Position numbers and translations under genes: made by a program
Source of the DNA: Thermoanaerobaculia bacterium
GTDB taxonomy: Bacteria > Acidobacteriota > Thermoanaerobaculia > UBA5066
Direction of reading: 5' to 3'
Assembly (NCBI GenBank): GCA_963816185.1
Contig: CAWFJJ010000024.1
Coordinates: forward strand, 224,001-288,000
DNA: 64,000 nucleotides
The notes under the pieces: generated by a model
Database searches by the model: none
Told to the model about the DNA's origin: nothing
Seen by the model: only the letters and a program-made list of their open reading frames with translations
Part shown: piece after piece, positions 2,198-54,540 of the stretch
Numbering within the stretch: the stretch's first letter is position 1
Layout of the letters: every line of letters starts with the position of its first letter

Positions 2198-2767
2198 AAT
2201 CGATCGCTCAGCGAGTCCGGTTGGGCGCCCTTGCGGCGCTCGCGGCGGCGGCCCTCGGCCAGACGGCCGGCGCCGAGCCCGCCTACGTCGGCGCGAAGAG
2301 ATGCAAAGGATGCCACCTCAAGGAGTTCACGTCCTGGTCGGAAACCAGGATGTCGAAGGCCTTCGAGCTCCTGAAGCCCGGCGTTTCCGCCGAGGCGAAG
2401 ACGAAGGCGAAGCTCGATCCGAAGAAGGACTACTCGACGGATGCGAACTGCCTCCCGTGCCACACGACCGGCTACGGGAAGCCCGGCGGCTTCGCCGACG
2501 TCGCGACCACGCCTGATCTCGTCGGCGTGCAATGCGAGATGTGCCACGGGCCGGGGGGCACGTACTCTCCAGAAGCAGTACATGAGTCTCCAAAACAAAG
2601 AGTACAAGAAAGCCGAGCTCGTGAAGGTGGGTCTGATCGGGCAGATCGGCAAAGACACGTGCGTGAGCTGCCACAACTCCAAGAGCCCGTTCTTCAAGGC
2701 TTTCAACTTCGAGGAGAGGAAGGCGAAGGGAATCCACACGAAGGTTCCGTTGAAGTACGCGCACTGA
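2194..2767 (+). CDS. Cytochrome c554-family tetraheme cytochrome with an apparent +1 frameshift near 2565
   Basis: ATG 2194 after GGAGG; signal peptide; YVGAKRCKGCH, CLPCH and VGVQCEMCHGPG in one frame, CVSCH...LKYAH* in the next frame. Confidence 0.8.
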
Positions 2768-2861
2768 GCGGCGCGCGCTCGAAGGGGGCAGGGGAGCGGG
2801 AGGCTGCGGCGGGAAGGCTCCCGGCGTCGTCTGCGACTATATTGGTGCAGGACCGGGGCCC

Positions 2862-36224: not shown

Positions 36225-37811
<1,587 letters not shown>

Positions 37812-37846
37812 CACAGCTGCGATGTTTCAGGTCTACTCTCCCGGTC

Positions 37847-37888
37847 ATGAGCTCGACCTCGCGCCACTGGCACGTGCATCACAGCTAA
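37847..37888 (+). CDS. Putative attenuator leader peptide MSSTSRHWHVHHS (4 His, 1 Trp)
   Basis: atg agc tcg acc tcg cgc cac tgg cac gtg cat cac agc taa, directly upstream of the aro-his-trp operon; TACTCT -10 box 7 nt upstream; no SD. Confidence 0.8.
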   Translation: MSSTSRHWHVHHS

Positions 37889-37901
37889 GCCGGCCGCGCT
37901 T

Positions 37902-37943
37902 CGCGCCGCCGGCCCATCGTGGTCCGGAGGCGCGCGGGTTTTT
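37902..37943 (+). terminator. Attenuator terminator hairpin
   Basis: CGCGCC-G-CCGG-C-CCA-TCG-TGG-T-CCGG-A-GGCGCG followed by CGGGTTTTT. Confidence 0.65.
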
Positions 37944-37958
37944 CAGTAGCACTCACCC

Positions 37959-37983
37959 AACCCCCTCCGGACAGGAGGGGGTT
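37959..37983 (+). promoter_or_regulatory. Hairpin sequestering the aroDE Shine-Dalgarno
   Basis: Perfect 10-bp stem AACCCCCTCC-GGACA-GGAGGGGGTT just upstream of TTG 37990. Confidence 0.7.
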
Positions 37984-37989
37984 CTCGTT

Positions 37990-39537
37990 TTGGCCCTGAC
38001 CGCTCAGAACACGCTTCTCGTCGCCTCGGTGGCGCCGGCGTCGAACGCCGATGCCGTCCTCTCGCGCGAGGCCCTCGCCGATCTGCCTCCTTCGGCGGCG
38101 GTGGAATTACGCCTCGACGCGATGACCGAGGAGCCCGCATTCGGCGCGCTGCGCGCGCGCTTCGAAGGAAGAACACTCATCGCGACTGTCCGTTCCAAAG
38201 CCGAGGGCGGCGTGCTGCCGCGGACTGAAGAGGAAGAGAGGAGATTCTTAGAAGGTGCCCTCGCTGCGGGATTCGATCTCGCCGATGTCGAATTTCGCCG
38301 CGACGTGGGGGACCGCCTCGCCCGCATTCCTTCTTCTAAGAAAATCTCTTCCCTTCATGACCTTGAAGGCATCCCGGCCGACTTGAACACGGTCGTCACC
38401 CGGATGCTCTCGACCGGCGCGCGATACGTGAAGGTCGTCGCGACGGCGAACGATTCCGGCGACGCCCGCCGCCTCCTCGAGCTCCAGGCCGCGCACAGGG
38501 ACGGGCGCCTCACGGTGTTCGGAATGGGAGAGGCCGGCATCGCCACGCGGGCGCTCGCACCGTATCTCGGCGCGCCGCTCGCGTATGGCGCGCTTCTTCT
38601 CGGGCGGGCAACGGCGCCGGGCCAGCTCCTCGCCCGCGACCTCGTGGAGATCTACGGCGTGGCCCGGGCGCGAAAGGTGTCGAGTCTCTTCGGACTCCTT
38701 GGAGGCATGGTTTCGCACTCTCTCTCTCCGGTCATCCACAACGCCAACTTCGAGGCGCTCGGCCTCGACGCGATCTACGTACCATTTGCAATGCTCGTGC
38801 TTGGGAGAGAGCTCGAACCCCTCGTCAACTCGCTCGACACCCTCGGCGTTCGCCTCGCGGGCGCCTCCGTGACGATCCCCTTCAAGGAGGAGGCCGCGGC
38901 GCTTTCGGACGCGGGAGACGACGGCGAGAAAGCGGTCAACACGTTGCTGAGGTCGAGCGCTCCGGGCCAGCCGCTCAGGCTGCGAGCGGAAAACACCGAT
39001 CGCGCGGCGTTCGCGGCCGTGATCGAAGGGACGGGGGTCGCGCTCGTTCTCGGGGCGGGCGGCACCGCAAGGGTCGCCGTCGAAGTTCTGAGAAAGAGGA
39101 AATACGAGGTCTTTCTCATGAACCGAGGCGACGAGCGCGGCGAAGCGCTCGCGAAAGCCACGGGCGCCCATTACGTTTCTCAGAAATCCTCGATGGCCTT
39201 TCCCAGGCCGGACGTCCTCGTCAATGCCACGCCGCTCGGCCTGAAAGACGGCGATCCTCTTCCCTGCGAGCTGGGTCTTCTGCGCCGCGGGATGCTCGTC
39301 GTCGACGCGCCGTACCGCGCGACCGGCACGGAGCTCGTCAGGGCGGCACGCGCCGCGGGCGCGCGCGTCGTGGACGGCCAGACGCTGCTCCTTCTCCAGG
39401 CCGCGGGCCAGGCGACGCTTTTCACGGGCAAGAAGACGGCTCCGCGAGATCTTCTCGAGCGCCTGCCGTCGCATGCACGGCTGGCCTTCTCCTTTTTCGA
39501 AGAGCACCGCCCTGCGCTTCCGGGGATTTCGACATGA
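37990..39537 (+). CDS. aroE: Bifunctional type I 3-dehydroquinate dehydratase / shikimate dehydrogenase (AroD-AroE)
   Basis: AVELRLD, ATVRSKAEGG, SLHD, GMGEAG, APGQL; then SHSLSPVIHN, SVTIPFKE, AVNT, NTD, LGAGG, VNATPLG. Confidence 0.9.
   Translation: MALTAQNTLLVASVAPASNADAVLSREALADLPPSAAVELRLDAMTEEPAFGALRARFEGRTLIATVRSKAEGGVLPRTEEEERRFLEGALAAGFDLADVEFRRDVGDRLARIPSSKKISSLHDLEGIPADLNTVVTRMLSTGARYVKVVATANDSGDARRLLELQAAHRDGRLTVFGMGEAGIATRALAPYLGAPLAYGALLLGRATAPGQLLARDLVEIYGVARARKVSSLFGLLGGMVSHSLSPVIHNANFEALGLDAIYVPFAMLVLGRELEPLVNSLDTLGVRLAGASVTIPFKEEAAALSDAGDDGEKAVNTLLRSSAPGQPLRLRAENTDRAAFAAVIEGTGVALVLGAGGTARVAVEVLRKRKYEVFLMNRGDERGEALAKATGAHYVSQKSSMAFPRPDVLVNATPLGLKDGDPLPCELGLLRRGMLVVDAPYRATGTELVRAARAAGARVVDGQTLLLLQAAGQATLFTGKKTAPRDLLERLPSHARLAFSFFEEHRPALPGIST
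38240..38350. repeat. Inverted pair of the TTC-N3-GAA motif in the AroD domain
   Basis: GAGATTCTTAGAAGGTG (core 38245) and CCTTCTTCTAAGAAAATCTC (core 38334). Confidence 0.75.
39082..39191. repeat. Inverted pair of the TTC-N3-GAA motif in the AroE domain
   Basis: AAGTTCTGAGAAAGAG (core 39086) and TTACGTTTCTCAGAAATCCTC (core 39177). Confidence 0.65.
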
Positions 39538-41174
39538 ACACAGACCGACCCGACCCAAACCTGCCGCGCGGAGTTCAGGCGTTTCTTTTCGATGCGGCCG
39601 AGCGCCGCCGCAAGGCCGAGGACTCGGTCGTCCGGAGGCTCCATGAGGCCGGCCTGCGCGAGGTCATCCTTCCCGTTCTCGATTTCGCGGACCCGTATGC
39701 GGGCGTGACGGCCGAGGGCGACGAGCGCATCTATCGTTTTCTCGATCGGCAGGGAAACACGCTCTCGCTCAGGGCGGACTTCACGCCGATGGCCGCGCGC
39801 GTCGTCGCGCCGCGCCTCGGCACGATCTCGGGTCCTGTGTCCCTGTTCTATCGGGGCGATGTCGTGCGCGACGAAGAAATCGGAGTGGGGCGCCGCCGTG
39901 AGTTCGCTCAGGTGGGAGCCGAGCGTTACGGGGACGGGCGGCCGGAAGCGGACGGTGAGATGCTCGCCCTCGCCCTCTCGTGCCTCGGCGACGTCCCGGC
40001 CCCGCGCCTGAGGCTGACGCTGGGCTGGGCGGGCCTGCTCGAACGGCTGCTCGCCGCGGTCGCGCCGGCGCTCGCGCGCAGGGAGGGCTCCGGTTTGGCC
40101 GACGCGGCTTCGGCCGCCCGCTCGCGACACGTAACGCAGCTCGAGGCGCTGCTCCGGCGCTCGGGCGCAGTCGAAGCGGCCGCGACCGAGGTTGCGAGAG
40201 CGCTCCTCGTAGGCTTCGATCCCGGCTCGATTCTCTTCCGGCCGCCTCTCCTCGCGGGCGCCGCCGCCGAGCTCGCGCGGGCCGTGGCCGTGGCGCAAGC
40301 CGCACGGCCGGGCCTGTCGGTCGTCGTCGACCTGGCAGACGCGCCCGAGGCCCCCTACTACACGGGGCTCACGTTCAGCGTGGACGCGGCGGGCGGCGGC
40401 GGCACGATCGCCGGAGGCGGCCGGTACGACGGGCTCCTCGCGCGCTTCGGCACAGCCGCTCCGGCCCTCGGGTTCTGCATCGGACTCGAGGCGTTCGGCG
40501 CCGCCACGGATGCCGGCGAAGAGGACGAAACCCCGCGGCCGCTCCGGATCGCGGTCGGTAAGGGCCGGCTCCTCCCGCAGGCTCTCGCGGCGCTGCGCGC
40601 GGGAGGGGCCACATTCGACGAGCCGGACGGAAGGCGTCTCCTCGTGGCCGCGACGGACGGCGCGTTCGAGCTGCTCTTGCTTAAGGACGACGACGTGCCG
40701 ACGTACGTGGCGCACGGAGGAGCCGATCTCGGCATCGTGGGCAGCGACCGCGTCGCCGAGAGCGGAGAGGATGTCACGTCGCCCGTCGAGCTGCCTTTCG
40801 GCACTTGCCGGCTGTCGCTCATCGGGAGGGCCGGCGAAGCCTTCCGACCGAACGGGCAGCCCGTGCGCGTCGGCACGAAGTATCGTCGCCTCGCAGCGCG
40901 GTACTTCGACGAGAGGAAGATCGCCCACGAGATCGTCCCGCTGGCGGGCTCCGTGGAGCTCGCCGCGGCCCTGAAGCTCACGGACGTCGTCGTGGACCTG
41001 ATCGAGTCGGGGTCCACGATCGCCGCGAACGGCCTCGCCGAGATCGAGACGATTCTTCCAAGCTGCGCCACCCTCATCCTCGGCCGCGCGTCGCTCGTGG
41101 CGCGCCGGGCCGAGATCGCGGAGTTCGTCGAGCGGCTGCGCGCGAGCGTGCGCGCGGGAACCGGAAAACCATGA
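39534..41174 (+). CDS. hisG: Fused ATP phosphoribosyltransferase regulatory subunit (HisZ) and short-form HisG
   Basis: N-part LPRGV, LRADFT, REFAQVGAE, YYTGL.F, GGGRYDGL; C-part RIAVGKGRL, DVPTYV..G.ADLGIVG.D, GSVELA, DLIESGST...NGL. Confidence 0.9.
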   Translation: MNTDRPDPNLPRGVQAFLFDAAERRRKAEDSVVRRLHEAGLREVILPVLDFADPYAGVTAEGDERIYRFLDRQGNTLSLRADFTPMAARVVAPRLGTISGPVSLFYRGDVVRDEEIGVGRRREFAQVGAERYGDGRPEADGEMLALALSCLGDVPAPRLRLTLGWAGLLERLLAAVAPALARREGSGLADAASAARSRHVTQLEALLRRSGAVEAAATEVARALLVGFDPGSILFRPPLLAGAAAELARAVAVAQAARPGLSVVVDLADAPEAPYYTGLTFSVDAAGGGGTIAGGGRYDGLLARFGTAAPALGFCIGLEAFGAATDAGEEDETPRPLRIAVGKGRLLPQALAALRAGGATFDEPDGRRLLVAATDGAFELLLLKDDDVPTYVAHGGADLGIVGSDRVAESGEDVTSPVELPFGTCRLSLIGRAGEAFRPNGQPVRVGTKYRRLAARYFDERKIAHEIVPLAGSVELAAALKLTDVVVDLIESGSTIAANGLAEIETILPSCATLILGRASLVARRAEIAEFVERLRASVRAGTGKP

Positions 41175-42594
41175 TGAAGATCGTCGATGCGCGCACGCGC
41201 GAGGGGCGACGCGAGCTGGAAGCTTTGCTGAAGAGCCGGCGGGGAGCGTCTCCCGACTTCGCCACGTTGAAGCTGGTGCTGCCGGTGGTGGAGGACGTTC
41301 TGCGAAGAGGGGAGCCCGCGCTGAGCAAATATGTAGAACGCTTCGACGGGCCGGGTGCACGCGGGCAAGGTTCGAAGAGAGCCGTTTCTTCGAATGGTAA
41401 AGAGGGGAAACGGCCCGGCGGAACGACGGCAGCGGCGCCCGTTGGCGATCAGCCCTATTACCGTTCTAAGAAAATCCTTATTGATCCCCGTCGCGAAAAG
41501 TTACCTCGTGTGGATCGTTCGTTCGCTGCCGCGTTCCGCCTCGCGCGGCAGCGCATCGAGGCCTATCACCGCAAACAGCTCTCGTACGAATCCGTGGGCT
41601 TCTCTTTCAAAGACTCTCTCGGCGTGTCGTTCGTCGAGAAACCCGTGCCGCTCGACTCCGTCGGCGTCTACGTGCCGGGAGGCCGGGCGTTCTATCCGTC
41701 GTCTGCTCCTGATGGGCGTCGTGCCGGCGCGGGTCGCCGGGGTGCCGCGCGTCGTCGTCGCGACGCCGCCCAACGCGTGGGCGTCGAGCCCGGAGCTGCG
41801 CTGGGCGGCGCGCGAGCTCAGCGTCGACGAAGTGCTCCTCGCGGGCGGGGCTCACGGCATCGCGGGGCTCGTCTCCGTCGCGGGAGTCGCGAAGATCGTG
41901 GGCCCGGGCAACCGCTTCGTCGCGGCGGCGAAACACATCGTGTCGGGCCTCGTGGCCGTGGACATGCCGGCCGGGCCTTCGGAAGTTCTCATCGTCGCGT
42001 CTCGCGACGCGGACCCGTCGCTCGTCGCCGCGGATCTCCTCGCGCAGGCCGAGCACGACCCGGACGCAAGCTGCCTGCTGTTCACGGATTCGAGAGAGCC
42101 TCGCTGCCGACGTGCGGGTCGAAGCGTGTCGCTGCAAATTGGGAGCCTCGAATTCGGACCTTTCTTCGAAAGTGAATGCAGCCACGGCGCGCGCCGCGCT
42201 GCTTCGGCGATGGCCGAATCTTCATTTTCAAAGAAATCTCTCGCGCCCTCGCTTTCGGCCGGCTCAAAGGTCGCCGCCGAGCACGTGCAGTTGATGGGCC
42301 GGAGTCCGCGGAGGGTCTCGCCCTGCGCTGCTCCCGACCGCCGGCGCGCTTTTCATCGGCTCGTCGACGCCGACCGCTCTCGGCGACTACCTCGCCGGCC
42401 CGAACCATGTGCTCCCGACGGGGGGCGCGGCGCGCAGCTTCTCGGGCCTCTCCGTGCGCGACTTCCTGCGCTGGGGCCGCTCCATGAAAGTGCCCGCGAG
42501 CGCAGCGCGCCGGCTCGCGCCTCCGGCCGCAGTTCTCGCGCGGTTCGAAGGCCTCGCGGCGCACGCGCGCTCTCTCGATCGGAGGGCGTCATGA
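41171..42594 (+). CDS. hisD: Histidinol dehydrogenase with apparent frameshifts (near 41703 and within 42090-42350)
   Basis: VGVYVPGGRA.YPSS / LLMGVVPARVAGV, KIVGPGN.FV, DMPAGPSE, AQAEHD, AEHVQL, GDYLAGPNHVLPT spread over three frames. Confidence 0.88.
41382..41478. repeat. Inverted pair of the TTC-N3-GAA motif spanning an in-frame insertion in hisD
   Basis: GTTTCTTCGAATGGTAAAGAGGGG (core 41386) and GCCCTATTACCGTTCTAAGAAAATCC (core 41464). Confidence 0.8.
42158..42241. repeat. Second inverted pair of the motif in hisD
   Basis: TTTCTTCGAAAGTGAATG (core 42162) and TCTTCATTTTCAAAGAAATCTC (core 42227). Confidence 0.7.
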
Positions 42595-43658
42595 CGGGCC
42601 GGACGGTGCCGGTCCGTGAGGAGATCCGGGCGCTCGGCGCGTATCGGCTCGTTCCCGAGGACGCGCCGCCTCTCCGCGCAAAGCTGGATTTCAACGAGTC
42701 GCCTTTCGAGGTCCCGGAGGAGATCCGCGCCGAGGTTCTCACGCGCCTTTCCGAGAAGAGGTGGGGCCGCTATCCGGAGTTCGGAGCGCCGCGCCTGAAA
42801 AGAGCGGTCGCGGACGCGATCGGCCGCCGGCCCGAGGAGATCGTCGTCGGAAACGGCTCGGGAGAGGTGATCCTGGCCGCCGTCTCCGTGTTCGCGGGCG
42901 GAGGGTCGCTCGTGCTTCCGACGCCCACGTTCTCGCTCTACGGGCAGATCGCCGCGATCGCGGCCGCGCGCGTCACGGACATCCCGCGAACGGGCCCGGA
43001 TTTCGCGCTGGCCGAAGGTGCGTTCCTCACGGCTTCGGAGCAGCCGGGAGCCGTTCCGCTCGTGTGCTCGCCGAACAATCCGACCGGCGGCGTCGTCGGG
43101 AGGGATTTCCTCGAGCTCTTGCTCGACGCCGCTCCCGTCGTCCTCGTCGATCAGGCGTACGTGGATTTCGCCGAGGCCGGGGACGATGCGCTGCCGCTCG
43201 TCGGCCCGCGTGCGAATCTCGTCGTCTTCCGCACGTTGTCGAAGGCCTACGCGGCGGCGGGGTTTCGAATCGGATACGCGGTCGCGGTGCCCGATCTCGT
43301 CCTCGAGATCGAGAAGGCGATCCTGCCCTTCAGCGTCGACCTCGCGGCCGAGGAGCTGGCCATCGCCGTTCTCTCCCATCCCGAGATCTCGCGCGAGCAC
43401 GTGAGGCGGATCGTGGCCGAACGCGAGCGAGTCGCCGAGGCGCTTCGCGCCGCGGGTGCCGTCGTCGCGCCCTCGCGCTCGAACTTCCTGTTCGTGCGCC
43501 CCCCGGGAGACGATGCCGCGCTCGTGCGCCGCGGCTTGCTCGATCGGGGCATCCTGGTACGCGACATGACCTCGGCCGCGCCGGGGCGGCTGAGGGTGTC
43601 GATCGGGTCGCGGGCGGAGAACGACGTCTTCCTCGAGGCGTTCCAGGAGGTGATATGA
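42591..43658 (+). CDS. hisC: Histidinol-phosphate aminotransferase
   Basis: KLDFNESP, VGNGSGE, CSPNNPTG, VDQAY, RTLSKAY.AAG.RIGY. Confidence 0.93.
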   Translation: MTGRTVPVREEIRALGAYRLVPEDAPPLRAKLDFNESPFEVPEEIRAEVLTRLSEKRWGRYPEFGAPRLKRAVADAIGRRPEEIVVGNGSGEVILAAVSVFAGGGSLVLPTPTFSLYGQIAAIAAARVTDIPRTGPDFALAEGAFLTASEQPGAVPLVCSPNNPTGGVVGRDFLELLLDAAPVVLVDQAYVDFAEAGDDALPLVGPRANLVVFRTLSKAYAAAGFRIGYAVAVPDLVLEIEKAILPFSVDLAAEELAIAVLSHPEISREHVRRIVAERERVAEALRAAGAVVAPSRSNFLFVRPPGDDAALVRRGLLDRGILVRDMTSAAPGRLRVSIGSRAENDVFLEAFQEVI

Positions 43659-44251
43659 GCCGGAGCGGGTCCGTCGAGCGGACGACGAAGGAGACCTCCA
43701 TTTCGCTCGCCATGGCTCTCGACGGCACGGGGCGGGCGGACGTCCAGACGCCCGTGGGATTTCTCTCGCACATGCTCGAGACGATCGCGAAGCACGCGCG
43801 CGTCGACCTCACCGTGCGGGCCGCCGGGGACGTGCACATCGACGCGCATCACACCGTCGAGGACGTCGGTCTCGCGTTCGGCGAGGCGCTGGATCAGGCC
43901 CTCGGATCGCGGGCTGGGATCGAACGGTTCGGCACGAGTCTCGTCCCTCTCGACGAAGCGCTCGCGCGTTCCGTCGTGGACCTTTCGGGCCGGCCTTACA
44001 TCGTCTTCGAGTCGCCTGTCGACAAGGAGCTGCTCCTCGTCACGAAGGACTTTCCGTTCGCCCTCGTCGAGGAGTTCTGGAAGTCCGCGGCGTTTCGCGG
44101 CAAGTTCAACCTCCACGTGGACGTCGTCCGGGCGAAGAACGGCCACCACGCGGCCGAGGCGGTCTTCAAGTCGGCGGCGCGCGCGCTGCGCCAGGCCATG
44201 GCGGTCACGGGGACGGAAATCCCCTCGACGAAGGGAACGCTGACGGCATGA
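43655..44251 (+). CDS. hisB: Imidazoleglycerol-phosphate dehydratase
   Basis: RTTKET, DAHHTVED, PLDEAL, NGHHAAEAVFK, PSTKG. Confidence 0.96.
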   Translation: MSRSGSVERTTKETSISLAMALDGTGRADVQTPVGFLSHMLETIAKHARVDLTVRAAGDVHIDAHHTVEDVGLAFGEALDQALGSRAGIERFGTSLVPLDEALARSVVDLSGRPYIVFESPVDKELLLVTKDFPFALVEEFWKSAAFRGKFNLHVDVVRAKNGHHAAEAVFKSAARALRQAMAVTGTEIPSTKGTLTA

Positions 44252-44877
44252 GCACCCCGCCCCGCGCGCCCGTCACGCTCGTCGACTACGGGGTCGGCAA
44301 CACGACCTCGGTGATCCGGGCATTCCGGCGCCTCGGCGCCGAGGTGGAATTCACGGCCGACCTCGACCGCGTGGCGTCCGCCCGGCGGCTGGTTCTCCCC
44401 GGAGTCGCCGCCTTTCAACCGGCCATGAGCCGCCTCCTCGAGACGGGCCTCGAGGCCGGCGTGCGCGCCGCGGTCAAGCGCGGAGGGCGCCTTCTCGGTC
44501 TGTGCCTCGGCTTCCAGCTCCTCTTCGAGGAAAGCGAGGAGCATGGCGTGCACAAGGGCCTGGGACTCGTGCCGGGCCGCGTGTGCCCGTTTCCCGCCCG
44601 CGTGCGCACACCCCACGTGGGATGGAATCAGCTCCTGACGCGCCGCCCGGACGGATTCGTCCAGGGGCTGCCGGACGAGAGCTGGGTCTACTTCGTCCAT
44701 TCCTTCAGGCCGGAAGGCGTCGACGCCGCGGACATCGCGGCCGCCTGCGACCACGGTGGGGAGTTCGCGGCCATCGTTCAGCGCGGGAACGTCTGGGGGT
44801 GCCAGTTCCATCCGGAGAAGTCGTCGGAGAACGGCCGCCTTCTCCTGACGAATTTTCTGAAGGAGGACGCGGCGTGA
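44248..44877 (+). CDS. hisH: Imidazole glycerol phosphate synthase, glutaminase subunit
   Basis: DYGVGN, LPGV, GLCLGFQ, PHVGWN, YFVHS, QFHPEKS. Confidence 0.96.
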
Positions 44878-45665
44878 GCGGCGAACGCCTGGCCCTGTGG
44901 CCCGCGATCGACCTCATGGGCGGGCACGTCGTGCGGCTGCTGAAGGGCAAACGCGAGGACGTGACGTTCTACGACGAGCCTCCCGCTCGGGCCGCGAGGA
45001 GGTTCGCCGACGAGGGCGCCGACGGCGTCCACGTCGTGGACCTCGATGCGGCGTTCGGGACCGGCAGCAACAAGAAAGAGATCGAAGAGATTCTCTCTGT
45101 TTCGGAGGCTGCGGGAGTCGCGGTGCAGGTCGGGGGAGGGATGCGCACACCCGCCGCTGTCGAGGATTTCTTAGAAAGGGTGAGTGGGGCCCGCGTAGTC
45201 GTAGGCAGCTTGCCGTTCCTCGACCGTCCCGCCTTCACGCACCTTCTAAGAAAATCTTCCTCTTCGTCTTCCTCTTCGACTTTATCTTGCCGCATCGTCG
45301 TCGCGCTCGACTGCAAGGACGGCCGGCCGACGGTGCGCGGGTGGACCGAGGACTCCGGGATGGGAGACGCCGTTTCCGTGGCCCGGTCGCTCGCGGACAT
45401 CGGCGTGTCCGCCCTTCTCGTGACGGACATCGCCCGCGACGGGGCGATGACGGGTCCCAATGTCGAGCTTCTGGCCGACGTGCGTGCCGTGTTTCCGGGC
45501 GAGATCCTCGCGTCGGGCGGCATGCGAGGCGAAGAGGACCTCGCTCCTGTCGGAGGCGCGCTCGCGGGCGGTGCCCGCGGTGCCATCTTCGGCCGATCTC
45601 TTCACGCCGGCGTCACGACCGTACCCCGGCTCCGGGCGGCGCGCGACCTCGGGAGGCCGTCATGA
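44874..45665 (+). CDS. hisA: ProFAR isomerase
   Basis: [43 protein letters not shown]. Confidence 0.94.
45162..45265. repeat. Inverted pair of the TTC-N3-GAA motif in hisA
   Basis: GAGGATTTCTTAGAAAGGGTGAG (core 45168) and CACCTTCTAAGAAAATCTTCCTC (core 45244). Confidence 0.82.
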
Positions 45666-47095
45666 CGGTCGCGGTGCGTGTGATCCCCTGCCTCGACGTG
45701 GCGGGCGGCCGCGTCGTCAAGGGCGTCTCTTTCGAAAGCCTCCGCGACGCGGGCGATCCGGTCGAGGCCGCCGTGCGGTACGAGGCCGAAGGCGCCGACG
45801 AGCTGGCGTTCCTCGACATCGCGGCCGCGCACGAGAAGCGCGGGACGCTCGTGGACCTCGTGGCACACGTGGCCGAAGTGCTTTCGATTCCGTTCACGGT
45901 CGGAGGAGGCGTGCGGTCGGTGGAGGACGCGGACGCGCTCCTCCGCGCGGGAGCCGACCGCGTGACCGTGAACACCGCCGCGGTCGAGGACCCTTCCTTG
46001 ATCACGAGGCTGGCCGAACAGTTCGGGGCGCAATGCGTCGTCGTCGCGATCGATGGCAAGCGCATCCGCGACGCGAGCGTCCCCGCCGTGATGCGCGTGA
46101 TGACGCACGGCGGACGCAATCCGACCGACCGGACGGTGACCGGGTGGGCCGCCGCGGCCGCTGCGGCGGGCGCGGGCGAGATCCTCCTGACGTCCGTCGA
46201 CGCCGACGGCACGCAGGCCGGCTTTGATCTCGAGATGCTTCGCGCCGTGCGGGCCGCCGTGGACGTTCCGATCGTGGCCTCGGGCGGCGCGGGCCACCTC
46301 GAGGATTTCGCGAAGGCCGTCGTGATCGGCGGCGCTGACGCCGTGCTCGCGGCCTCCGTCTTCCACGACCGCATCTACACGATCGGCGCGGTCAAGGCGG
46401 CGATGCGGCGGGCCGGACTCGCGGTTCGCCCCGCGCCCGCGCGCGTGCGCACGCTTCTGCCTCGCTTCGATGCGGCCGGCCTGGTCCCTGTGATCATGCG
46501 CGACGTGGTGACGGGTAACGTCCTCACCCTCGCCTGGGCGAATGCGGAGGCGCTTGCGAAGACGCGCGAGACCGGCCTCGCGCACTTCTACAGCCGCTCG
46601 CGGAAGGAGCTCTGGAAGAAGGGCGAGACGTCCGGAAACGTCCAGCATGTCGTCGGGATCTCCCTCGATTGTGACGACGACGCCGTCCTGTACGACGTGC
46701 GCCCGTCGGGTCCGGCCTGTCACACCGGCGCGGACTCGTGCTTCTCGCGCGTCGAGACGCTTGGAACGCCCGGCTCCGAGGTCGTGCCCGCGGACGAGCT
46801 CGACCTCACGGCTCTCTTCGCGATCGTCAAGGCACGGAAGGAGTCACCGGTTCCCGGGTCGTACACGAACGAGCTCCTCGAGGGCGGCGTCCCGCGCATC
46901 GCCCAGAAGGTGGGCGAGGAAGCCGTCGAGACGGCCATTGCGTCGGTCACCGGCGACGCGGGTGCGCTCGCCGGCGAAGCCGCGGACCTTCTCTACCATC
47001 TCGCAGTCCTGCTGACGGCTCGCGGTGTCGGGCCGGGCGACGTCGCCGCCAAGCTCGCCGAGCGCCGCGGCGCGCCGCGACGAGAGAAGCCGTGA
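45662..47095 (+). CDS. hisF: Fused HisF cyclase and HisIE (PR-AMP cyclohydrolase / PR-ATP pyrophosphatase)
   Basis: [29 protein letters not shown]; then FYSRSR.ELW.KGETSGN, DCDDD, ACHTG..SCF; [20 protein letters not shown], all in one frame. Confidence 0.92.
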
Positions 47096-48474
47096 AAGCG
47101 CCCGATCGCCTCGTCGTCGTCGAGCAGCCGGCCGATCTCACGACTCCGGTGGCGCTGATGCGGGGCCTTCTCGCGGCGGGCGGGCCTGCCTTCCTCCTCG
47201 AATCGGTGGAGGGCGGGGATCGCGTGGCGCGGTGGTCGTTTCTCGGCGCGTCGCCGTCGGGCGAGATCTCCGGCCGGGAGACGGACCCATTTGACGCCCT
47301 CCGGGCGCTCCCTCGCGACGACGCGGTGCCGGACGGCGACGACCTGCCGCCCTTCACGGGCGGGGCCGTCGGCTATGTGGGCTACGACGCCGTGCGGCGA
47401 CTCGAGCGGCTGCCCGACTCGAACCCCGATCCGATCGGACTGCCGGACGCCTGGTTCGGGATCTTCGACGCGGTCATCGCCTTCGATCACGCGCGGCATC
47501 GGCTCCTCTTCGTGACGCACGCGGGAGAGGGGACCGAAGAGGAGAGAAGAGCCTTCGAAAGGCTGCGGGAGCTCGAAGCGCGTGCCAAGGCCGCGCCCGC
47601 ATCGGCTGCTTCGGCGTCGCCCGCCTGTCCCTCTTTCGAAGAATCTCTTCCTCTTCCGTCCTTCCTGTCCGCGGTCGAGCGCGCGAAAGAGCACATACGC
47701 GCGGGCGACGTCTTCCAGGTCGTCCTGTCGCGGCGGTGGTCCGCGCCGTTCTCGGGCGATCCCTTCGCCGTGTATCGCGCCCTGCGCTCGCTCAGCCCGT
47801 CGCCGTACCAGTACTACCTGCGGACGCCTCACGGCGCGATTTTCGGTGCGTCACCCGAGCGCCTCGTCCACGTCGCCGCGGGCCACGAAGAGGCGACTGC
47901 CGAGACGATCCCGCTCGCCGGGACGCGACCGCGGGGCGCGACGCGCGAGGAAGACCTCGCCTTCGAGAGGGAGCTGCTCGCCGACCCGAAGGAGCGCGCC
48001 GAGCACGTCATGCTCGTGGACCTCGGGAGGAACGACCTCGGCCGGGTCGCGAAACCGGGCAGCGTCCGCGTGAAGGATTTCTTCCATGTCGAGCGCTATT
48101 CGCACGTCATGCACATCGCCTCGCGCGTGACGGGAGCCCTCGCGCCCGGCAAGGACGCCGTCGACGCGCTCGTGGCGACGTTTCCCGCGGGCACGCTGAC
48201 CGGGGCGCCGAAAATACGCGCGATGGAGATCATCGAGGATCTCGAGCCCGTGAGACGAGGCGCATACGGCGGCGCCGTAGGCTACCTCGATTTCGCCGGC
48301 AACCTCGACGTCGCAATTGCGATCCGCACGGCCATCGTAGCAAACGGCACGTTGCACGTGCAGGCCGGAGCTGGCATCGTGGCGGATTCGGATCCCGAGT
48401 CCGAGGCCACCGAGTGCGAGAACAAGGCGCGTGCCCTCATGCGCGCCGTGGAGAGAGCGGGGACGTACCGATGA
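47092..48474 (+). CDS. trpE: Anthranilate synthase component I
   Basis: [61 protein letters not shown]. Confidence 0.94.
47545..47650. repeat. Degenerate inverted pair of the motif in trpE
   Basis: GAGCCTTCGAAAGG (core 47551) and CCCTCTTTCGAAGAATCTCTTC (core 47635). Confidence 0.55.
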
Positions 48475-49040
48475 TCCTCGTGATCGACAACTACGACTCG
48501 TTCACGTACAACCTCGTCCAGATCCTCTCGACGCTCGACGAGGACGTGCGCGTCGTCCGAAACGACGCACTTTCCGTGGACGAGGTTCTCGCCGCGAAGC
48601 CCGACCGGCTCGTCGTATCCCCCGGTCCAGGCCGGCCGGAGGACGCGGGGATCTCGTGCGAGCTGTTCCGCCGGAACGAAACGATCCCGCTGCTGGGCGT
48701 CTGCCTCGGTCATCAGGCTCTCGGCGCCGTCTTCGGCGGAACGATCTCCCGGGCGCCCGTGCTGATGCACGGCAAGACCTCGGAGATCGCGCACGACGGG
48801 AAAGGACTCTTCGAGGGTCTCGAGAACCCGTTCACGGCAACGCGCTACCACTCGCTCGTGGTCGAGAAGGATTCGGTTCCGGCCGCGCTGCGCATCACGG
48901 CGACCAGCCCCGACGGGCTCGTGATGGGCCTCGCGCACCGGACACGGCCTCTCGTGGGCGTTCAGTTCCACCCCGAGTCGATCTTGACGTTGCAGGGGGA
49001 GCGCCTCTTGAAGAATTTCGTCGCCGGGCGGCTCGCGTGA
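48471..49040 (+). CDS. trpG: Anthranilate synthase component II
   Basis: IDNYDSFTYN, SPGPG.P, GVCLGHQ, RYHSL, QFHPES. Confidence 0.95.
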   Translation: MILVIDNYDSFTYNLVQILSTLDEDVRVVRNDALSVDEVLAAKPDRLVVSPGPGRPEDAGISCELFRRNETIPLLGVCLGHQALGAVFGGTISRAPVLMHGKTSEIAHDGKGLFEGLENPFTATRYHSLVVEKDSVPAALRITATSPDGLVMGLAHRTRPLVGVQFHPESILTLQGERLLKNFVAGRLA

Positions 49041-50071
49041 CGACGGCGGCGCACCGCGCGCTGCGCGCCGTGGCGCGCGGGGGACGCCTGACGCGAGAGG
49101 ACGCGCGTGGCGCGGTATCGGCCCTCCTCGATGAGAACGTTCCGGCTGCGATCGCGGGGGGGCTTCTTTCGGCGCTGGCTGCCATGGGCGAGACGGTCGA
49201 GGCCGTGGCCGGCGCCGTGGATGCTCTCCGGGCGCGCGCGACGCGGCCTCCGGTCGACCCCGCGCTCGCCGCCCGCGCGATCGACGTGTGCGGGACCGGA
49301 GGCGACGGGCTCGGCACGTTCAACGTCTCGACCGCGGCCGCTTTCGTCGCGGCGGGCGCGGGCGCGCCGGTCGCGAAGCACGGGAACCGCGCGGTTTCGT
49401 CCGCGTGCGGTTCGGCGGACGTACTTGCGGCGCTCGGGGTCGACATCGAGATGTCTCCCGCGCTTGCCGCCGAGGCGCTCGCCCGCGCGAACGTCACGTT
49501 CTTCTTCGCGCCGCTCTATCACCCGGTCATGAAGAAGGTCGGCCCGCTCCGGCGCGAGCTCGGCCTGCGCACGGTCTTCAATCTCGCCGGGCCGCTCTCG
49601 AATCCAGCCGGCGTCACCCGGCAGATCGTCGGCGTCGATCACCCCGAGCGCGTCCCCGTGATCGCGGGCGCCCTCGCGGCACTCGGTGCCGAGCACGCCC
49701 TCGTGTTTTCGCACGAGACGGGGGGTGACGAGATCCTGCCGTTCGGGCGAACGTTCGCCGCGGAGGTGCGCCACGGGGAGGTCGAGCTCCTCCAGCTCGG
49801 CGCCGTCGACTTCGGCTTCGCCGAAGGGAGATCCGATGCGCTCCGGGGCGGAGATGCCGAGACGAACGCCGAGATCCTGCGCGCCCTTTTCGGAGGATTC
49901 CGGCGCGACGCACGGAGCGTGATTCTCATGAACGCCTCCGCCGCGCTCGTCGTCGCGGGCATCGCGGCTGACTTTCGCGAGGGCGTGGCCCGCGCCGAGG
50001 CTGCGCTCGACGAGGGAAAGGCGGCGGCGGCCCTCGAGGCGCTCGTCCGGATCTCACGGGGAGACCGATGA
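49037..50071 (+). CDS. trpD: Anthranilate phosphoribosyltransferase
   Basis: DVCGTGGDG..TFNVST, KHGNR.VSS.CGSAD, RTVFNL.GPL.NP. Confidence 0.96.
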   Translation: MTTAAHRALRAVARGGRLTREDARGAVSALLDENVPAAIAGGLLSALAAMGETVEAVAGAVDALRARATRPPVDPALAARAIDVCGTGGDGLGTFNVSTAAAFVAAGAGAPVAKHGNRAVSSACGSADVLAALGVDIEMSPALAAEALARANVTFFFAPLYHPVMKKVGPLRRELGLRTVFNLAGPLSNPAGVTRQIVGVDHPERVPVIAGALAALGAEHALVFSHETGGDEILPFGRTFAAEVRHGEVELLQLGAVDFGFAEGRSDALRGGDAETNAEILRALFGGFRRDARSVILMNASAALVVAGIAADFREGVARAEAALDEGKAAAALEALVRISRGDR

Positions 50072-50330
50072 GGATTTCTTCGAAAGGGAAAAGGGAACGA
50101 GAGAGAAGATTGAAGATTTCTTAGAAGGGGTAAGAGGGGATGGGCGGTTCGGTTCTGGGCGAGATTCTCGCGGCAAGGAGGCGCCGTATCGCGGCGGGGG
50201 AGTTCACGGCGCACACGGCCGCCGCCGCGCGCGCTGCCGCGGGATTTTCGCCAGCGCCCGACGCGATGCCCGACGGAGCGCGCTTCACCGCCGCTCTTTC
50301 TTCTTCCTCTTCTAAGCGAAATCTTCCTCT
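50070..50330. repeat. Motif copies in the trpD-trpC spacer and trpC 5' end (two left arms, one right arm)
   Basis: GAGGATTTCTTCGAAAGGG (core 50076), GAAGATTTCTTAGAAGGGGTAAGAGGG (50118), CTCTTCTAAGCGAAATCTTC (50310). Confidence 0.78.
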
Positions 50331-51732
50331 TTCTCTTTCTTTCTTTCTTGCGGAAATCAAGCACCGCTCGCCGAGCGCGGGTCTGATCCTGCCCGACGTC
50401 CCGGCGCGCATCGAGGAGGTGGCGCGCGCTTATCGGCGCGGCGGGGCCTCGGCTCTGTCCGTCGTCATCGAGCAGGACTACTTCGGGGGCGATCCGTCCT
50501 GGCTGCCGCGCGCCAGGGCGGCGTCGGGGCTCCCGGTCCTGATGAAGGACTTCGTGGTGGACGAGACCCAGCTCGATTTCGCCGCCGCTCTGGGCGCCGA
50601 CGCCGTGCTCCTGATCGCCGCGGCTCTCGACGGCGCGGCCCTCGCGCGGCTCTACGCGGCGGCCCTCGAACGCGGTCTCGCGGCTCTCGTGGAGGCGCAC
50701 GACGAGGCCGAGGTTGAACGGGCGCTCGACGCGGGCGCGGAGATGATCGGCGTGAACTCACGCGACCTGAGAACGTTCGAGGTCGACCTGCCGGGCATGG
50801 CGCGCCTCGGCGCGCTCCTGCCGGCGTCCGTAGTGCGCGTGGCCGAAAGCGGCATCAAATCGCGGGGCGACGTCGAGGCGCTCGCCGCCGCCGGCTACGG
50901 CGCCTTCCTGGTGGGAGAGGCGCTTCTCAAGGCGCCCGACCCCGCAGCGATGCTGCGAGGGCTCCGCGGCGAGAACCCCACGGAGGTCAAGATCTGCGGG
51001 ATCACGCGGGAGGAGGACGTCGACATCTGCCTGGAACTGGGCGTCGACTGGATCGGCCTCGTCTTCGCGCCGAGGTCTCCTCGCTGCCTGACGCCGGAAG
51101 AGGGGAGACTTCTACGAATGAAAGCGAAAGGCGAAGGGCACCGGGGATTTCTTCGAATGAAGGACGAACGGAACGGAGCCGGGGTCCGCAAACACGGCGC
51201 AGCGGCGGCGGGAGGCGTCGGCGCCGGCGCGGTGAAGGGTGTCGTCGCGGTGTTCGACGGGAACAACGAGGAGGAGATTCGACGAGTGATCGAACTCGTG
51301 CGCCCCGACGTCGTTCAAATGCCCCTCTCGCCTCGTTCACTTTCCCAGGAGTCCTTTTCTTCGGCCCCCTCCTTTCTTCCCCCTTCTAAGAAATCCTTCT
51401 CTTCGGACATCACGGTGTGGAACACGATCCGCGTCGGCCGCGACGACCTCTCCTCCGCGAGGGAAGCCGAAGGCGACGCGCTCCACTTCGATACGTCCGT
51501 CGCAGGAGCGAGCGGCGGCACCGGCAGAGTCTTCAACTGGAGCCTGCTGGAAGGAATCGATCGCTCCCGCCCCGTGGTGCTCGCGGGCGGGCTGAAGCCC
51601 GAGAACGTCGCGGAAGCAGTGAGAAGGGTGAGGCCCGACGTCGTAGACGTGGCCTCGGGAGTGGAGAAGGCGCCGGGAATCAAGGACCCGGCGAAAATCG
51701 CCGCGTTCGTGAGGGAGGTGCGACGTGCCTGA
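50140..51732 (+). CDS. trpC: Fused indole-3-glycerol phosphate synthase / phosphoribosylanthranilate isomerase (TrpCF)
   Basis: [37 protein letters not shown]; then [33 protein letters not shown]. Confidence 0.93.
51105..51400. repeat. Motif copies within insertions in the TrpF domain
   Basis: GACTTCTACGAATGAA (core 51110), GGATTTCTTCGAATGAAGG (51149), TTCCCCCTTCTAAGAAATCCTTC (51384). Confidence 0.75.
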
Positions 51733-52945
51733 GGCAACTGGAGCCGATTTCCGTCCGCCCGAGGCCGACGCGCAGGGCCGCTTCGGCGCGTTCGGCGGGC
51801 GGTTCGTGCCGGAGACGCTCATGGCGCCGCTCGAGGAGCTCTCCCGCGCGTACAGGGACGCCCGGCGCGATCCCGCGTTCCGGCGCGAGCTGGACGGCCT
51901 CCTGAGGACGTATGCCGGCCGGCCGACGCCCCTCACGTATGCGAAACGGCTCTCGGAGGACCTCGGCGGCGCGCGCATCTTCCTCAAACGCGAGGATCTC
52001 CTCCACACGGGCGCTCACAAGATCAACAACGCCCTCGGCCAGGCCCTCCTCACGGTCCGGATGGGGAAGTCGCGGGTCATCGCGGAAACCGGCGCCGGCC
52101 AGCACGGCGTCGCGACGGCGACCGCGTGCGCGCTCCTCGGGCTCTCGTGCGTCGTTTACATGGGGGCGGTCGACGTCGAGCGCCAGGCCCTGAACGTGTA
52201 CCGGATGAAGCTCCTCGGCGCGACGGTCGTGCCCGTCATGGGCGGCACGCGGACGCTGAAGGACGCGATCAACGAGGCCATGCGCGACTGGGTCGCCTCG
52301 ACGGCGTCGACGCACTACATTCTCGGATCGGTCCTCGGGCCGCATCCGTTTCCGACGATGGTCCGCGACTTTCACGCGGTCATCGGGCGCGAGGCCCTCG
52401 CCCAGAGCCGCAAGGCACTCGGAAAGCTGCCGGACGTCCTCGTCGCGTGCGTGGGCGGCGGCTCGAACGCGATCGGCCTCTTCCGGGAATTCCTTACGTT
52501 TCGCGAGGTCGAGATGGTGGGGGTCGAAGCCGGAGGCCGGAGCCTTGCGCCCGGCGAGCACGCCACGCGCTTCGGCCCGGGCTCGATCGGCGTCCTCCAT
52601 GGCACGCGTACGCTCATCCTTCAAGACGCGGACGGGCAGGTTCTCCCCACGCATTCCGTTTCCGCCGGCCTCGACTATCCGGCCGTCGGACCCGAGCACG
52701 CGCGCCTCGCCGAGCTCGGGCGGACGCGGTACGTCTCCGTCGGTGACGAGGCCGCCCTCGCGGCCTTTCACCGGCTCGCCGAGACCGAAGGCATCATCCC
52801 GGCCCTCGAGACCGCGCATGCTGTCGCCTGGGCGATCGCGGAGGCTCCTCGCCGGCCGAAGAGTGCCGCTCTCCTCGTGAATCTCTCCGGCCGCGGTGAC
52901 AAGGACGTCGTCTCGGTGGCGCGGCGCGAGGGGGTGACGCTGTGA
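51725..52945 (+). CDS. trpB: Tryptophan synthase beta chain
   Basis: [50 protein letters not shown]. Confidence 0.98.
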
Positions 52946-53751
52946 CTCGCATCGGGCGGGCCTTCGCGAAAGCGAAGGCGTCGGGGCGCGCGGCGCTCGT
53001 CATCTTCGTGGAGGCCGGTGATCCGAACCTCGCGACGACCCGGCGGCTCCTGCCAGCGCTCGCCGCGTCCGGGGCCGACGTGCTCGAGCTCGGAATTCCT
53101 TTCAGCGATCCTCTCGCCGACGGTCCCGTCATCCAGCGCGCGAGCGAGCGCGCTCTCGCGTCTGGGACGACTCTTCAGGCGGCCCTCGCCCTGCTCGCCG
53201 AGCTGCGCGCGGCGCGCTTCAGCGCGCCGGTCGTGGTCTTCAGCTACGCGAACCCGATCCTCGCGATGGGCGAGGCGGAGTTCGCCCACCGCGCGGCCGA
53301 GGCCGGCGCGGACGGCGTGCTCGTCACGGACCTCCCGCCGGAGGAAGGGCGAGGGTTCGCGTCGATCCTGAAGAGCGCGAAGCTCGATCCCGTCTACCTC
53401 GTCGCGCCCACGTCGCCCGACGAGCGCATCCGCCGGGCGGGTTCGCTGTCACGTGGATTCCTGTATGTCGTGTCGCGCGCGGGCATCACGGGGACCCGCA
53501 CGGAGCTTCCCGAAGGGCTCGCGGCGCTCGTCGGACGCGTTCGAAAGCACGCGCCGCGCCTTCCGGTCGCCGTCGGCTTCGGCCTCTCGACGCCCGGGCA
53601 GGTGCGGACGGTCGCGGCACTCGCGGATGGAGTCGTCGTGGGAAGCGCGATCGTGACCGCGATGGAGGAGGCGATCCAGGAGGGCCGGGATCCCGTCGAA
53701 GCGGGCGCCGGGCTCGTACGAGTTCTCTCGGCCGCGACGAAGAAAGGTTGA
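52942..53751 (+). CDS. trpA: Tryptophan synthase alpha chain
   Basis: [42 protein letters not shown]. Confidence 0.98.
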
Positions 53752-53752
53752 C

Positions 53753-54517
53753 GTGTCCGGGGGCGGAACGGACCTGCCCGCCCGGATCTCGAAGGCGGAC
53801 CGCTCGACGCTCGTGTCGCTCATCGCCGACAACCTCTCCCGTCTGACGGAGCGCGATGCGCTGCAGGCCCTCCGGCATCCGCACGCCTCGGAGGCGATGA
53901 TCGAGGAGATCGTCTCCTCGAAGACGCTCCTCGCGTTCCGAGGCGTCAGGCGCCTCGTCGCCGCTCATCCCCTGACGCCGCGGCACGCGGCGCTTCGATG
54001 CCTCGAGGATCTGCTTTGGCGCGATCTTCTCGACATCGGCCGCGAGCCGCGCACGCCGCCGCCCGTGCGCGTTGCGGCGAACCGGAAGCTCGAGGATGCG
54101 CTCCGGTTTCTCGCGGTGGGTGAGAGGGTGGCCGTGGCGCGGTTCGCGACTTCCGTGCTCTTTCCGGCGCTCCTCGACGATACGGACCAGCGCGTGCTCG
54201 AGGCGGTTCTCGCGAACTCGCGGCTCACGCCCGAGGATCTGCTCCGCTGGCTCGCGACCGGGCATCCCCGGCCCGAAGACCTGGCGTTCCTCGCGCGCGA
54301 CGCGCGTTGGACGAGCCGACCCTCTGTCCGGATCGCCCTTCTGACGCATCGCCTGACGCCCCGCGCCGCGTCGCTTTCGCTTCTGACGTCGGCATCGCGG
54401 GGGGAATGGAAGAGGCTCGCCGAGGATCCCTCGGCGGACGCGCTCCTGGCGGCCTGTGCTCGCGAGCTGCTCGAAAAAGGCCCGAATTCCGTTGACAGGG
54501 GCGGTAAGTCACCATAG
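53753..54517 (+). CDS. Hypothetical alpha-helical repeat protein
   Basis: Clean ORF with typical codon usage; LVAAHPLTPR and VRIALLTHRLTP helical repeat motifs. Confidence 0.7.
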   Translation: MSGGGTDLPARISKADRSTLVSLIADNLSRLTERDALQALRHPHASEAMIEEIVSSKTLLAFRGVRRLVAAHPLTPRHAALRCLEDLLWRDLLDIGREPRTPPPVRVAANRKLEDALRFLAVGERVAVARFATSVLFPALLDDTDQRVLEAVLANSRLTPEDLLRWLATGHPRPEDLAFLARDARWTSRPSVRIALLTHRLTPRAASLSLLTSASRGEWKRLAEDPSADALLAACARELLEKGPNSVDRGGKSP

Positions 54518-54520
54518 CCT
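54492..54520 (+). promoter_or_regulatory. Sigma70 promoter
   Basis: TTGACA (54492), 17-nt spacer, TAGCCT (54515), upstream of the RodZ-like gene. Confidence 0.65.
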
Positions 54521-54540
54521 AAAGCGTTACGGGGAACCGG

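Follow-up and report, generated by a model that had tools for sequence, protein, structure and literature searches.

A candidate leader-peptide attenuator with mixed histidine and tryptophan sensor codons ahead of an aroDE-his-trp operon in Thermoanaerobaculia

Introduction

Leader-peptide attenuation, one of the founding cases in the study of gene control, is documented mainly in Proteobacteria and Actinobacteria. Here, we describe a putative attenuator of this type in a stretch of 64,000 nucleotides (nt) from a Thermoanaerobaculia bacterium of the phylum Acidobacteriota (assembly GCA_963816185.1, contig CAWFJJ010000024.1, positions 224,001 to 288,000; hereafter the window), in which a 180-nt leader with a short open reading frame (sORF) of both histidine (His, H) and tryptophan (Trp, W) codons lies ahead of a 15-gene operon of aroDE, his and trp genes. 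Among its closest described counterparts is the enterobacterial hisL leader (Rfam RF00514), which likewise sets a short reading frame of His codons before his genes and relies on ribosome stalling for its signal, with alternative hairpins and an intrinsic terminator. Whereas hisL carries a run of seven His codons, the leaders considered here mix two to four His with one to three Trp codons; they have no Shine–Dalgarno (SD) sequence and a promoter 9 nt from the ATG, match no Rfam family, use four helices (2:3, 3:4, 4:5 and 5:6) in place of the classic three, place the ribosome-binding site and start codon of the first gene within the terminator, and precede an operon that also makes tryptophan and includes a shikimate-pathway gene.

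As in Escherichia coli trpL (RF00513), the sORF has ~13–14 codons, Trp codons are placed towards its end, and the first switching segment follows closely on the stop codon. In our model, the outcomes are also alike (a ribosome at the stop codon would favor the terminator and one at the sensor codons read-through), with a 1:2 pairing as the analogue of the default adopted when there is no translation. Unlike trpL, the window leader has a single Trp codon with interleaved His codons, an extra relay step, a start that is probably leaderless, and no Rfam match. Mixed sensor codons are known from the thr (Thr and Ile), ilvGMEDA (Ile, Leu and Val) and ilvBN leaders, where, as proposed here, shortage of any one of the amino acids relieves termination; the amino acids sensed there share one branched pathway, whereas His and Trp come from separate pathways that share only phosphoribosyl pyrophosphate and have been merged by gene order. 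In the aromatic supraoperon of Bacillus subtilis, aro, trp and one his-pathway gene are likewise co-transcribed with an attenuator before trp, but free Trp is sensed there by the RNA-binding protein TRAP rather than by a leader peptide, and the complete his pathway is not included.

Leaderless sORFs have been reported for the polycysteine attenuators of mycobacteria (bioRxiv 10.1101/834739) and for the three-hairpin ilvBNC attenuator of Corynebacterium glutamicum (PMC11857589). The actinobacterial sORFs are reported to stand first on the transcript and to control the genes downstream via stalling at cognate codons, as we propose for the one presented here; our leaders differ in phylum and amino acids, have no sequence relation to them, and owe their leaderless assignment to promoter geometry. 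According to a further source (PMC2965389), hardly any of the attenuators predicted in Acidobacteria have been given a function. Our full-text literature searches returned no leader combining His and Trp and no described control of this operon, although surveys of proteobacterial attenuators in subscription journals could hold cases.

From the features set out below, we consider it probable that this leader is a ribosome-mediated transcription attenuator whose mixed His/Trp sensor codons govern the whole aroDE-his-trp operon. The mechanism itself is known; what would be new is the pairing of Trp with His, the probable leaderless start, the relay of four helices, and the embedding of the next gene's ribosome-binding site and start codon in the terminator. 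Such a leader would report on two amino acids from separate pathways that are joined by gene order alone, and its compact design (no 5′ untranslated region (UTR), four relay helices, a terminator bearing a ribosome-binding site) could be reused as a two-input sensor.

Results

A conserved sORF of His and Trp codons precedes aroDE

The intergenic stretch at 37812–37989 (window coordinates; the leader and operon features given here lie on the forward strand) is bordered by cysS on one side and by a fused aroD-aroE gene on the other, has a G+C content of ~68% in the leader region, and holds a 13-codon sORF, MSSTSRHWHVHHS, running from an ATG at 37847 to a TAA stop codon at 37886–37888. Its codons 7–12 (37865–37882) read H-W-H-V-H-H, such that four His codons (His7, His9, His11 and His12) and one Trp codon (Trp8) are packed around a single Val10, and no purine-rich ribosome-binding site is seen upstream of the ATG. 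An earlier note on this DNA had drawn attention to just such a His/Trp-rich sORF without SD at 37847–37888, and the cluster is indeed alone of its kind: of the 127,966 six-codon stretches contained in the six reading frames of the window, no other reaches five His/Trp codons, and the binomial expectation for such stretches, derived from the codon frequencies of the window itself, is 0.028.

Conservation of the sORF extends across the whole family to which the window belongs. The aroDE gene is present in 62 of the family's 63 genomes, and DNA upstream of all 62 loci was taken; two of these end at a contig edge before the leader, leaving 60 leaders from ten genera (genomes G025, G030, G188, G223 and G226 enter tallies of aroDE presence only, and no statement on leaders or operons refers to them). 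A sORF with both Trp and His codons occupies the same position in 60/60, as the attenuator proposed in the earlier note would predict for orthologous operons. Its length is 13 codons in 52 of the 60 and 11–14 codons throughout. Trp codons number one in 38 leaders, two in 21 and three in one; His codons number four in 33, three in 26 and two in one; and both kinds are concentrated in the last six to eight codons. The arrangement is RHWH[VSA]HH (one-letter amino acid code) in the window's genus, LWHWHH, RWHWHH or SWHWHH in five other genera, SWHWHWHH in one, and RPWHGHH and PWHPHH in two more.

Variation between these leaders is of the sort expected from translated DNA. Length changes are in whole codons, including one genome in which a single His codon has been deleted in frame; all three stop codons are used (24 TGA, 23 TAG, 12 TAA); His codons alternate between CAC (174) and CAT (34); the N-terminal codons vary freely; and the spacer codon between His residues may be Val, Ser, Ala or Gly. 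Taken as a pattern, this looks like coding sequence.

Two competing sets of predicted helices link the sORF to the aroDE start codon

Six segments of the leader can be paired in alternative ways. Segment 1 (37861–37871) lies within the sORF and pairs with segment 2 in the minimum free energy (MFE) fold (−13.9 kcal/mol). Segment 2 (37889–37899), which begins 1 nt after the sORF stop codon, is otherwise the 5′ arm of hairpin 2:3 (37889–37913, −20.1 kcal/mol). Segment 3 (37902–37916) can act either as the 3′ arm of that hairpin (through 37903–37913) or as the 5′ arm of hairpin 3:4, in which it forms 13 pairs with segment 4 (37920–37934; −23.5 kcal/mol). The core of segment 4, GTCCGGAGG at 37922–37930, can alternatively pair with segment 5 (37959–37968, extending to 37972), whose positions 37964–37972 are complementary to it (helix 4:5, GTCCGGAGG with CCTCCGGAC plus GGGTT with AACCC; −21.5 kcal/mol). 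Segment 5 is also the 5′ arm of a second hairpin, 5:6, in which 37959–37968 forms 10 pairs with segment 6 (37974–37983; −20.8 kcal/mol). Segment 6 includes the aroDE SD sequence GGAGG (37974–37978), and the hairpin runs into a U-rich tract, TTCTCGTTTT (37982–37992), that ends in the TTG start codon of aroDE (37990–37992).

These elements define an OFF set (3:4 with 5:6) and an ON set (2:3 with 4:5) whose summed energies, −44.3 and −41.6 kcal/mol, are near-equal; the fold of 37840–38000 as a whole reaches −73.8 kcal/mol (z = −2.24 against 200 shuffles). The hairpin at 37959–37983 is the best terminator-like site within 37800–55000, and together with its U tract it is kept across the whole family and in sister families. 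It had been proposed earlier as a hairpin that hides the aroDE SD. That role stands, since GGAGG lies in its 3′ arm, but hiding the SD is not its sole predicted role: the hairpin is a conserved intrinsic terminator as well, at which termination is predicted. A covariance search of 37000–39000 against Rfam (cmscan, E-values up to 10) gave four unrelated matches for the leader (E 3.7–7.9), all below gathering scores, and none to His_leader, Trp_leader, a T-box or a metabolite riboswitch. Being outside any Rfam family, the 180-nt leader and its sORFs will be left unmarked by genome pipelines.

In the mechanism that we propose, transcription from a TTGACA/TCTACT promoter overlapping the end of cysS would begin at the sORF start codon or within ~3 nt of it, and it is because the transcript starts there that the sORF could be translated without an SD. 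With ample charged tRNA-His and tRNA-Trp, the ribosome would reach the stop codon and cover segment 2, such that 3:4 pairs and segment 5 is left free for segment 6; hairpin 5:6 and its U tract would then terminate transcription at the aroDE start codon, and in any transcripts that escape, 5:6 would also bury the aroDE ribosome-binding site. A stall at any of the His or Trp codons would instead allow 2:3 to form behind the ribosome, freeing segment 4 to pair with segment 5. Helix 4:5 would block the terminator and leave the ribosome-binding site in segment 6 open, with expression of the whole operon as the predicted result. As a stall at either kind of codon would act alike, the leader would amount to an OR gate whose two inputs are a lack of His and a lack of Trp.

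Compensatory changes are found in both sets of helices. Sixteen close leaders and the OFF structure served to build a covariance model, to which all but one of the 60 family leaders could be aligned (59; the last fell below the score cut); this alignment was used because MAFFT had misregistered the hairpins between genera, so that its alignment of the 59 leaders was set aside, and a first covariance-model alignment was dropped for including antisense partial matches. Across the 59 leaders, 92.2% of OFF-set cells are paired, 13 of the 23 pairs are changed on both sides, and there are 104 double-change cells; none of 500 shuffles reaches the observed covariation score, and slid controls are 31–58% paired. 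The corresponding values for the ON set are 86.2% of cells, 9 of 19 pairs and 32 double-change cells (0/500 shuffles; slid controls 33–52%), and these figures are conservative because the underlying alignment had been fitted to the OFF pairing. In helix 5:6 taken alone, 96.8% of the cells are paired and both bases have changed in 7 of the 10 pairs. A three-way change joins the two sets, in that segments 4/5/6, which read GTCCGGAGG/CCTCCGGAC/GGAGGGGG in the window, have become GTCCGAGGG/CCCTCGGAC/CCGAGGGGG in genus g18. The sister families have the same four-step chain of helices, with the sORF stop codon inside the first hairpin (judged by eye).

The earlier note had placed the terminator elsewhere, at the first hairpin and the U tract after it (37902–37943). 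The alternative that follows, in which hairpin 37902–37934 with its run of five T (37939–37943) is the working terminator and the second hairpin serves only to hide the ribosome-binding site, is in our judgment unlikely. A stem of 13 pairs followed by five T does exist in the window, hairpin 2:3 competes directly with it, and a run of 3–5 T is kept in 16 aligned leaders of the window's subclade. However, the T run begins 4 nt past the stem, and the pattern scanner calls a terminator at the second hairpin and none here. The run is also confined to the subclade: at this position the genus's other clade has GGGTCATTC and the nine other genera have purine-rich sequence, although the hairpin itself is kept in all ten. 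The second hairpin, by contrast, retains its U tract family-wide and beyond, and the complementarity and co-change of segments 4 and 5 would have no role were the decision made at the first. Hairpin 3:4 therefore reads better as an anti-antiterminator within the relay than as a conserved terminator. It is possible, though doubtful, that 3:4 has gained a weak second termination site in the window's subclade, where the T run may act as an additional terminator.

Sensor codons largely follow the cargo of the operon

Comparison beyond the family relates the identity of the sensor codons to the genes downstream. Thirteen loci from sister families f2 and f3, of the same order, contain no his genes; in 12, aroDE is followed directly by trpEGDCFB, and the 13th is a 2.2-kb contig with aroDE alone. 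Their leaders contain WWW or WW in six cases, a single W in two and WYWY(W) in five, and no His codon stands beside the Trp codons in any of the 13.

The comparison was then widened to 12 more families of the class, represented by 20 loci. In each of the eight loci where hisZ-hisG-hisD-hisC follows aroDE, the sORF has both Trp and His codons (WW..HHH, YWHW, WWHVH, WWAHGH, W..HHH, WHWHAH and WWWHGVHH), and longer fetches confirmed the complete aroDE-his-trp order in all eight. Distant aroDE-trp loci without his genes have leaders with WWW, WCWW or FFGYWWWHLTH, with the exception of one (G086) in which no leader was seen; six loci with a standalone aroDE have no such sORF. The claim, made when the sORF was first noticed, that one leader serves both His and Trp in a merged operon is supported by this match between codons and cargo, together with the conservation and covariation described above.

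A broader reading of these comparisons, to which we give an even chance, holds that one chassis has been kept in at least eleven families of a single acidobacterial class while its sensor codons have been rewritten to suit the cargo of the operon, yielding a two-input OR gate. The chassis would comprise the leaderless sORF, the four-helix relay, and the terminator that masks the ribosome-binding site of the first gene. Its sensor codons would be Trp or Trp with Tyr for aroDE-trp operons, Phe/Tyr/Trp in one lineage, and HWHxHH, WHWHH, WHWHWHH or WWWHGVHH wherever nine his genes separate aroDE from trpE. If this is true, shortage of either amino acid would lift the repression of one transcript of 15 genes, with effects on transcription as well as on the initiation of translation. 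The set of leaders would also amount to a natural experiment, in which the RNA switch remains constant and its sensor codons vary with the genes of the operon, and so offer strong comparative evidence on the evolution of specificity.

Points that weigh against the model, and the response to ribosome position

A number of observations weigh against this interpretation, and we set them out here together with the tests to which they relate. The counts given for conservation overstate independent support, because the genomes are relatives. The match of codons to cargo is imperfect, because of two loci. One, G102, has no his genes in its operon and yet has a leader ending in WWWHLTH; the other, G142, has the leader RHRECWRW and a full-length hisD alone between aroDE and trpE. 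The G102 leader (locus L207, family f5) reads MTCTRVSFFGYWWWHLTH, lies ~196 nt upstream of aroDE-trpE-trpG, and includes Phe, Tyr and Trp together with two His codons; it is either an exception to the rule or a sign of wider aromatic sensing. In G142 (locus L216, family f11), hisD is found at 2144–3433, and RHRECWRW may be an intermediate between Trp+His and Trp-only leaders.

In the window itself, Trp sensing may be weak because the leader has a single Trp codon. This consideration bears on an alternative that we judge quite unlikely, namely that the attenuator senses one amino acid, with the other codon type as a passenger (Trp as the relic of an ancestral Trp leader, or His as filler). One Trp codon against four His in the window, one Trp codon in 38 of the 60 family leaders, the Trp-based leaders of the sister families (of which a Trp codon could be a remnant), and the two His codons of G102 would all be compatible with it. 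Against this, TGG is present in 60/60 family leaders and in 22 of them occurs in two or three copies interleaved with His (WHWHH, WHWHWHH); His stands beside Trp in 8/8 distant his-containing loci and in 0/13 of the his-free f2/f3 loci; and the trp genes have neither a leader nor intergenic space of their own, with trpE overlapping the hisIE stop codon. We therefore retain the sensing of both amino acids as the preferred reading.

The ON helix 4:5 is not uniformly strong: the duplex exceeds 95% of shuffles in just 6 of 12 representatives of genera or clades, and is weak in g10, g13, g14 and g16. Moreover, constrained MFE folds of the full-length leader give 3:4 with 5:6 under every ribosome mask. 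Because the equilibrium optimum at full length never changes with masking, the switch must be kinetic; in the classical trp attenuator, the decision is likewise made during transcription. Alternative folds, which the earlier note had suggested examining with the sensor codons masked, do not appear at full length, but they do when the window transcript is cut at 37975, where segment 5 has been made and segment 6 has not. With a ribosome at Trp8, the MFE structure of this truncated transcript is the full ON set (2:3 and 4:5); with a ribosome at His12, the optimum includes 4:5; and when the ribosome sits on the stop codon and so masks segment 2, hairpin 3:4 is optimal and segment 5 stays unpaired.

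Across the family, the state of each truncated fold was scored by the pairing partner of the segment 4 core. This measure replaced an earlier one (any upstream pairing of segment 5) that was undiscriminating, since the C-rich arm also finds partners in other G-rich stretches. All 59 leaders adopt the ON state (4:5) when the stall is placed at the first sensor codon. The remaining positions are less favorable to the model, with a stall at the last sensor codon giving ON in 51/59 and a ribosome at the stop codon giving the OFF state (3:4) in only 29/59 of these equilibrium folds. The other 30 leaders would need a kinetic argument, in which 3:4 would form ~30 nt of synthesis before segment 5.

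The operon of the window presents a further difficulty, in that its hisD (within 40946–42588) is split over three frames (40946–41704, 41706–42320 and 42328–42588), whereas hisD is one continuous reading frame in three relatives of the same genus. Two indels in the assembly would account for this, as would a broken hisD in the operon that the leader is proposed to control.

Promoter geometry suggests a leaderless start

The −35 box TTGACA (37808–37813) overlaps the TGA stop codon of cysS (37809–37811). It is present in 23/23 loci of the same genus in an alignment that was not conditioned on TTGACA, and lies 30–34 nt from the start codon in 59 family loci, the 60th lacking the box only through the limit of its contig. 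Sister-family loci that lack cysS upstream retain the hexamer as well, and we therefore assign it to the leader rather than to cysS. The likely −10 box is TCTACT (37832–37837), with an 18-nt spacer to the −35 box and 9 nt to the ATG. A different hexamer, TACTCT (37834–37839), had been put forward before; it stands 20 nt from TTGACA and relatives differ from it at the final T (TACTCC, TACTTC and others), and the conserved TCTACT lies 2 nt upstream of it. When 56 distinct family promoters are aligned by start codon, a −10-like hexamer occupies positions −15 to −10 (T at −10 in 86%, A at −12 in 77%), in forms that include TCTACT, TCCAAT, TTCAAT, CAGAAT and CACTAT. Its end is 9 nt from the start codon, or 7 nt in five of the family promoters, and 7–9 nt in sister family f3 (counted by eye on the sequences). 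In the 56 family promoters, the intervening stretch is C-rich, without an SD-like run.

With usual promoter spacing, which would place the start of transcription 0–4 nt ahead of the ATG, we infer a transcript start at ~37843–37847 and a 5′ UTR of 0–4 nt. The transcript of the sORF thus probably has a leaderless start. The leaderless translation proposed in the earlier note fits the missing SD and the conserved promoter 9 nt from the ATG, with the 5′ end itself estimated from that geometry.

The same region bears on a last alternative, that the sORF is untranslated or misread, the leader being a structured RNA bound by a protein or metabolite, the terminator region of cysS, or part of a 26-codon frame that begins with the TTG at 37808, runs across the cysS stop codon and depends on translational coupling on transcripts reading through from cysS. 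In its favor, no terminator is found between cysS and the leader, and most family members have the TTG of TTGACA in the same frame as the ATG. We nevertheless hold it to be very improbable: no Rfam family matches (best E-value 3.7, all four matches below gathering scores), variation in the sORF obeys codon rules (whole-codon lengths, three stop codons, third positions of His codons), and the 26-codon frame, which we judge unlikely to be the true one, varies as protein between TTG and ATG while keeping its promoter-like positions, is out of frame in G058 and in family f2 (f2 counted by eye), and in f2 retains TTGACA with no cysS upstream.

The operon and its surroundings

Pfam scans assign 15 genes to the operon under the leader (37990–53751), in the order aroDE, hisZG-D-C-B-H-A-F-IE and trpE-G-D-CF-B-A. 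The aroDE gene (37990–39537; DHquinase_I and Shikimate_dh_N) begins with a TTG that aligns with an ATG in genus g17. A hisZ-hisG fusion follows (39534–41174), a single reading frame of 546 amino acids with a HisZ-like tRNA-synt_His match and a short-form HisG match. In all related loci checked, hisZ and hisG matches occur in that order ~190 nt apart, and the fusion may therefore be class-wide. The genes hisD, hisC, hisB, hisH, hisA, hisF and hisIE extend up to 47095, and are succeeded by trpE (GTG start at 47092), trpG, trpD, trpCF, trpB and trpA (52942–53751). The trpE start overlaps the hisIE stop codon in a GTGA at 47092–47095, which points to translational coupling of the his and trp blocks. 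A consensus scan of 37800–55000 found no promoter-like sites, and the same range has 10 terminator-like sites against 9.9 in shuffles, of which the leader hairpin is strong and the other nine are weak (5–6 pairs). With no internal promoter-like site or strong terminator-like site and with the trpE overlap, we see no separate control region for the his and trp genes.

A scan of genome contigs with a degenerate form of the sensor motif returned mostly chance matches, the real leader being found only in Thermoanaerobaculia records. RHWHLHHH-like frames in Bacteroidota were rejected as leaders; in the locus checked (L062, 341–1933, a Chitinophagaceae metagenome-assembled genome), a frame resembling GRHWHLHHHV lies antisense inside a gene for 530 amino acids, which from its translation we take to be ammonia-lyase-like. 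Flags of one internal TGA on aroDE matches in several genomes proved to be the aroDE stop codon itself.

Upstream of the leader, cysS has the Pfam domains tRNA-synt_1e, DALR_2 and CysS_C. An AT-rich, partly palindromic stretch around TTCTAAGAATTCTT (37600–37660) interrupts this otherwise GC-rich gene in its C-terminal linker, between the DALR and anticodon-binding domains, and the scanner called a promoter-like site there on the minus strand. Similar AT-rich stretches seem to be present upstream of the leaders of some relatives.

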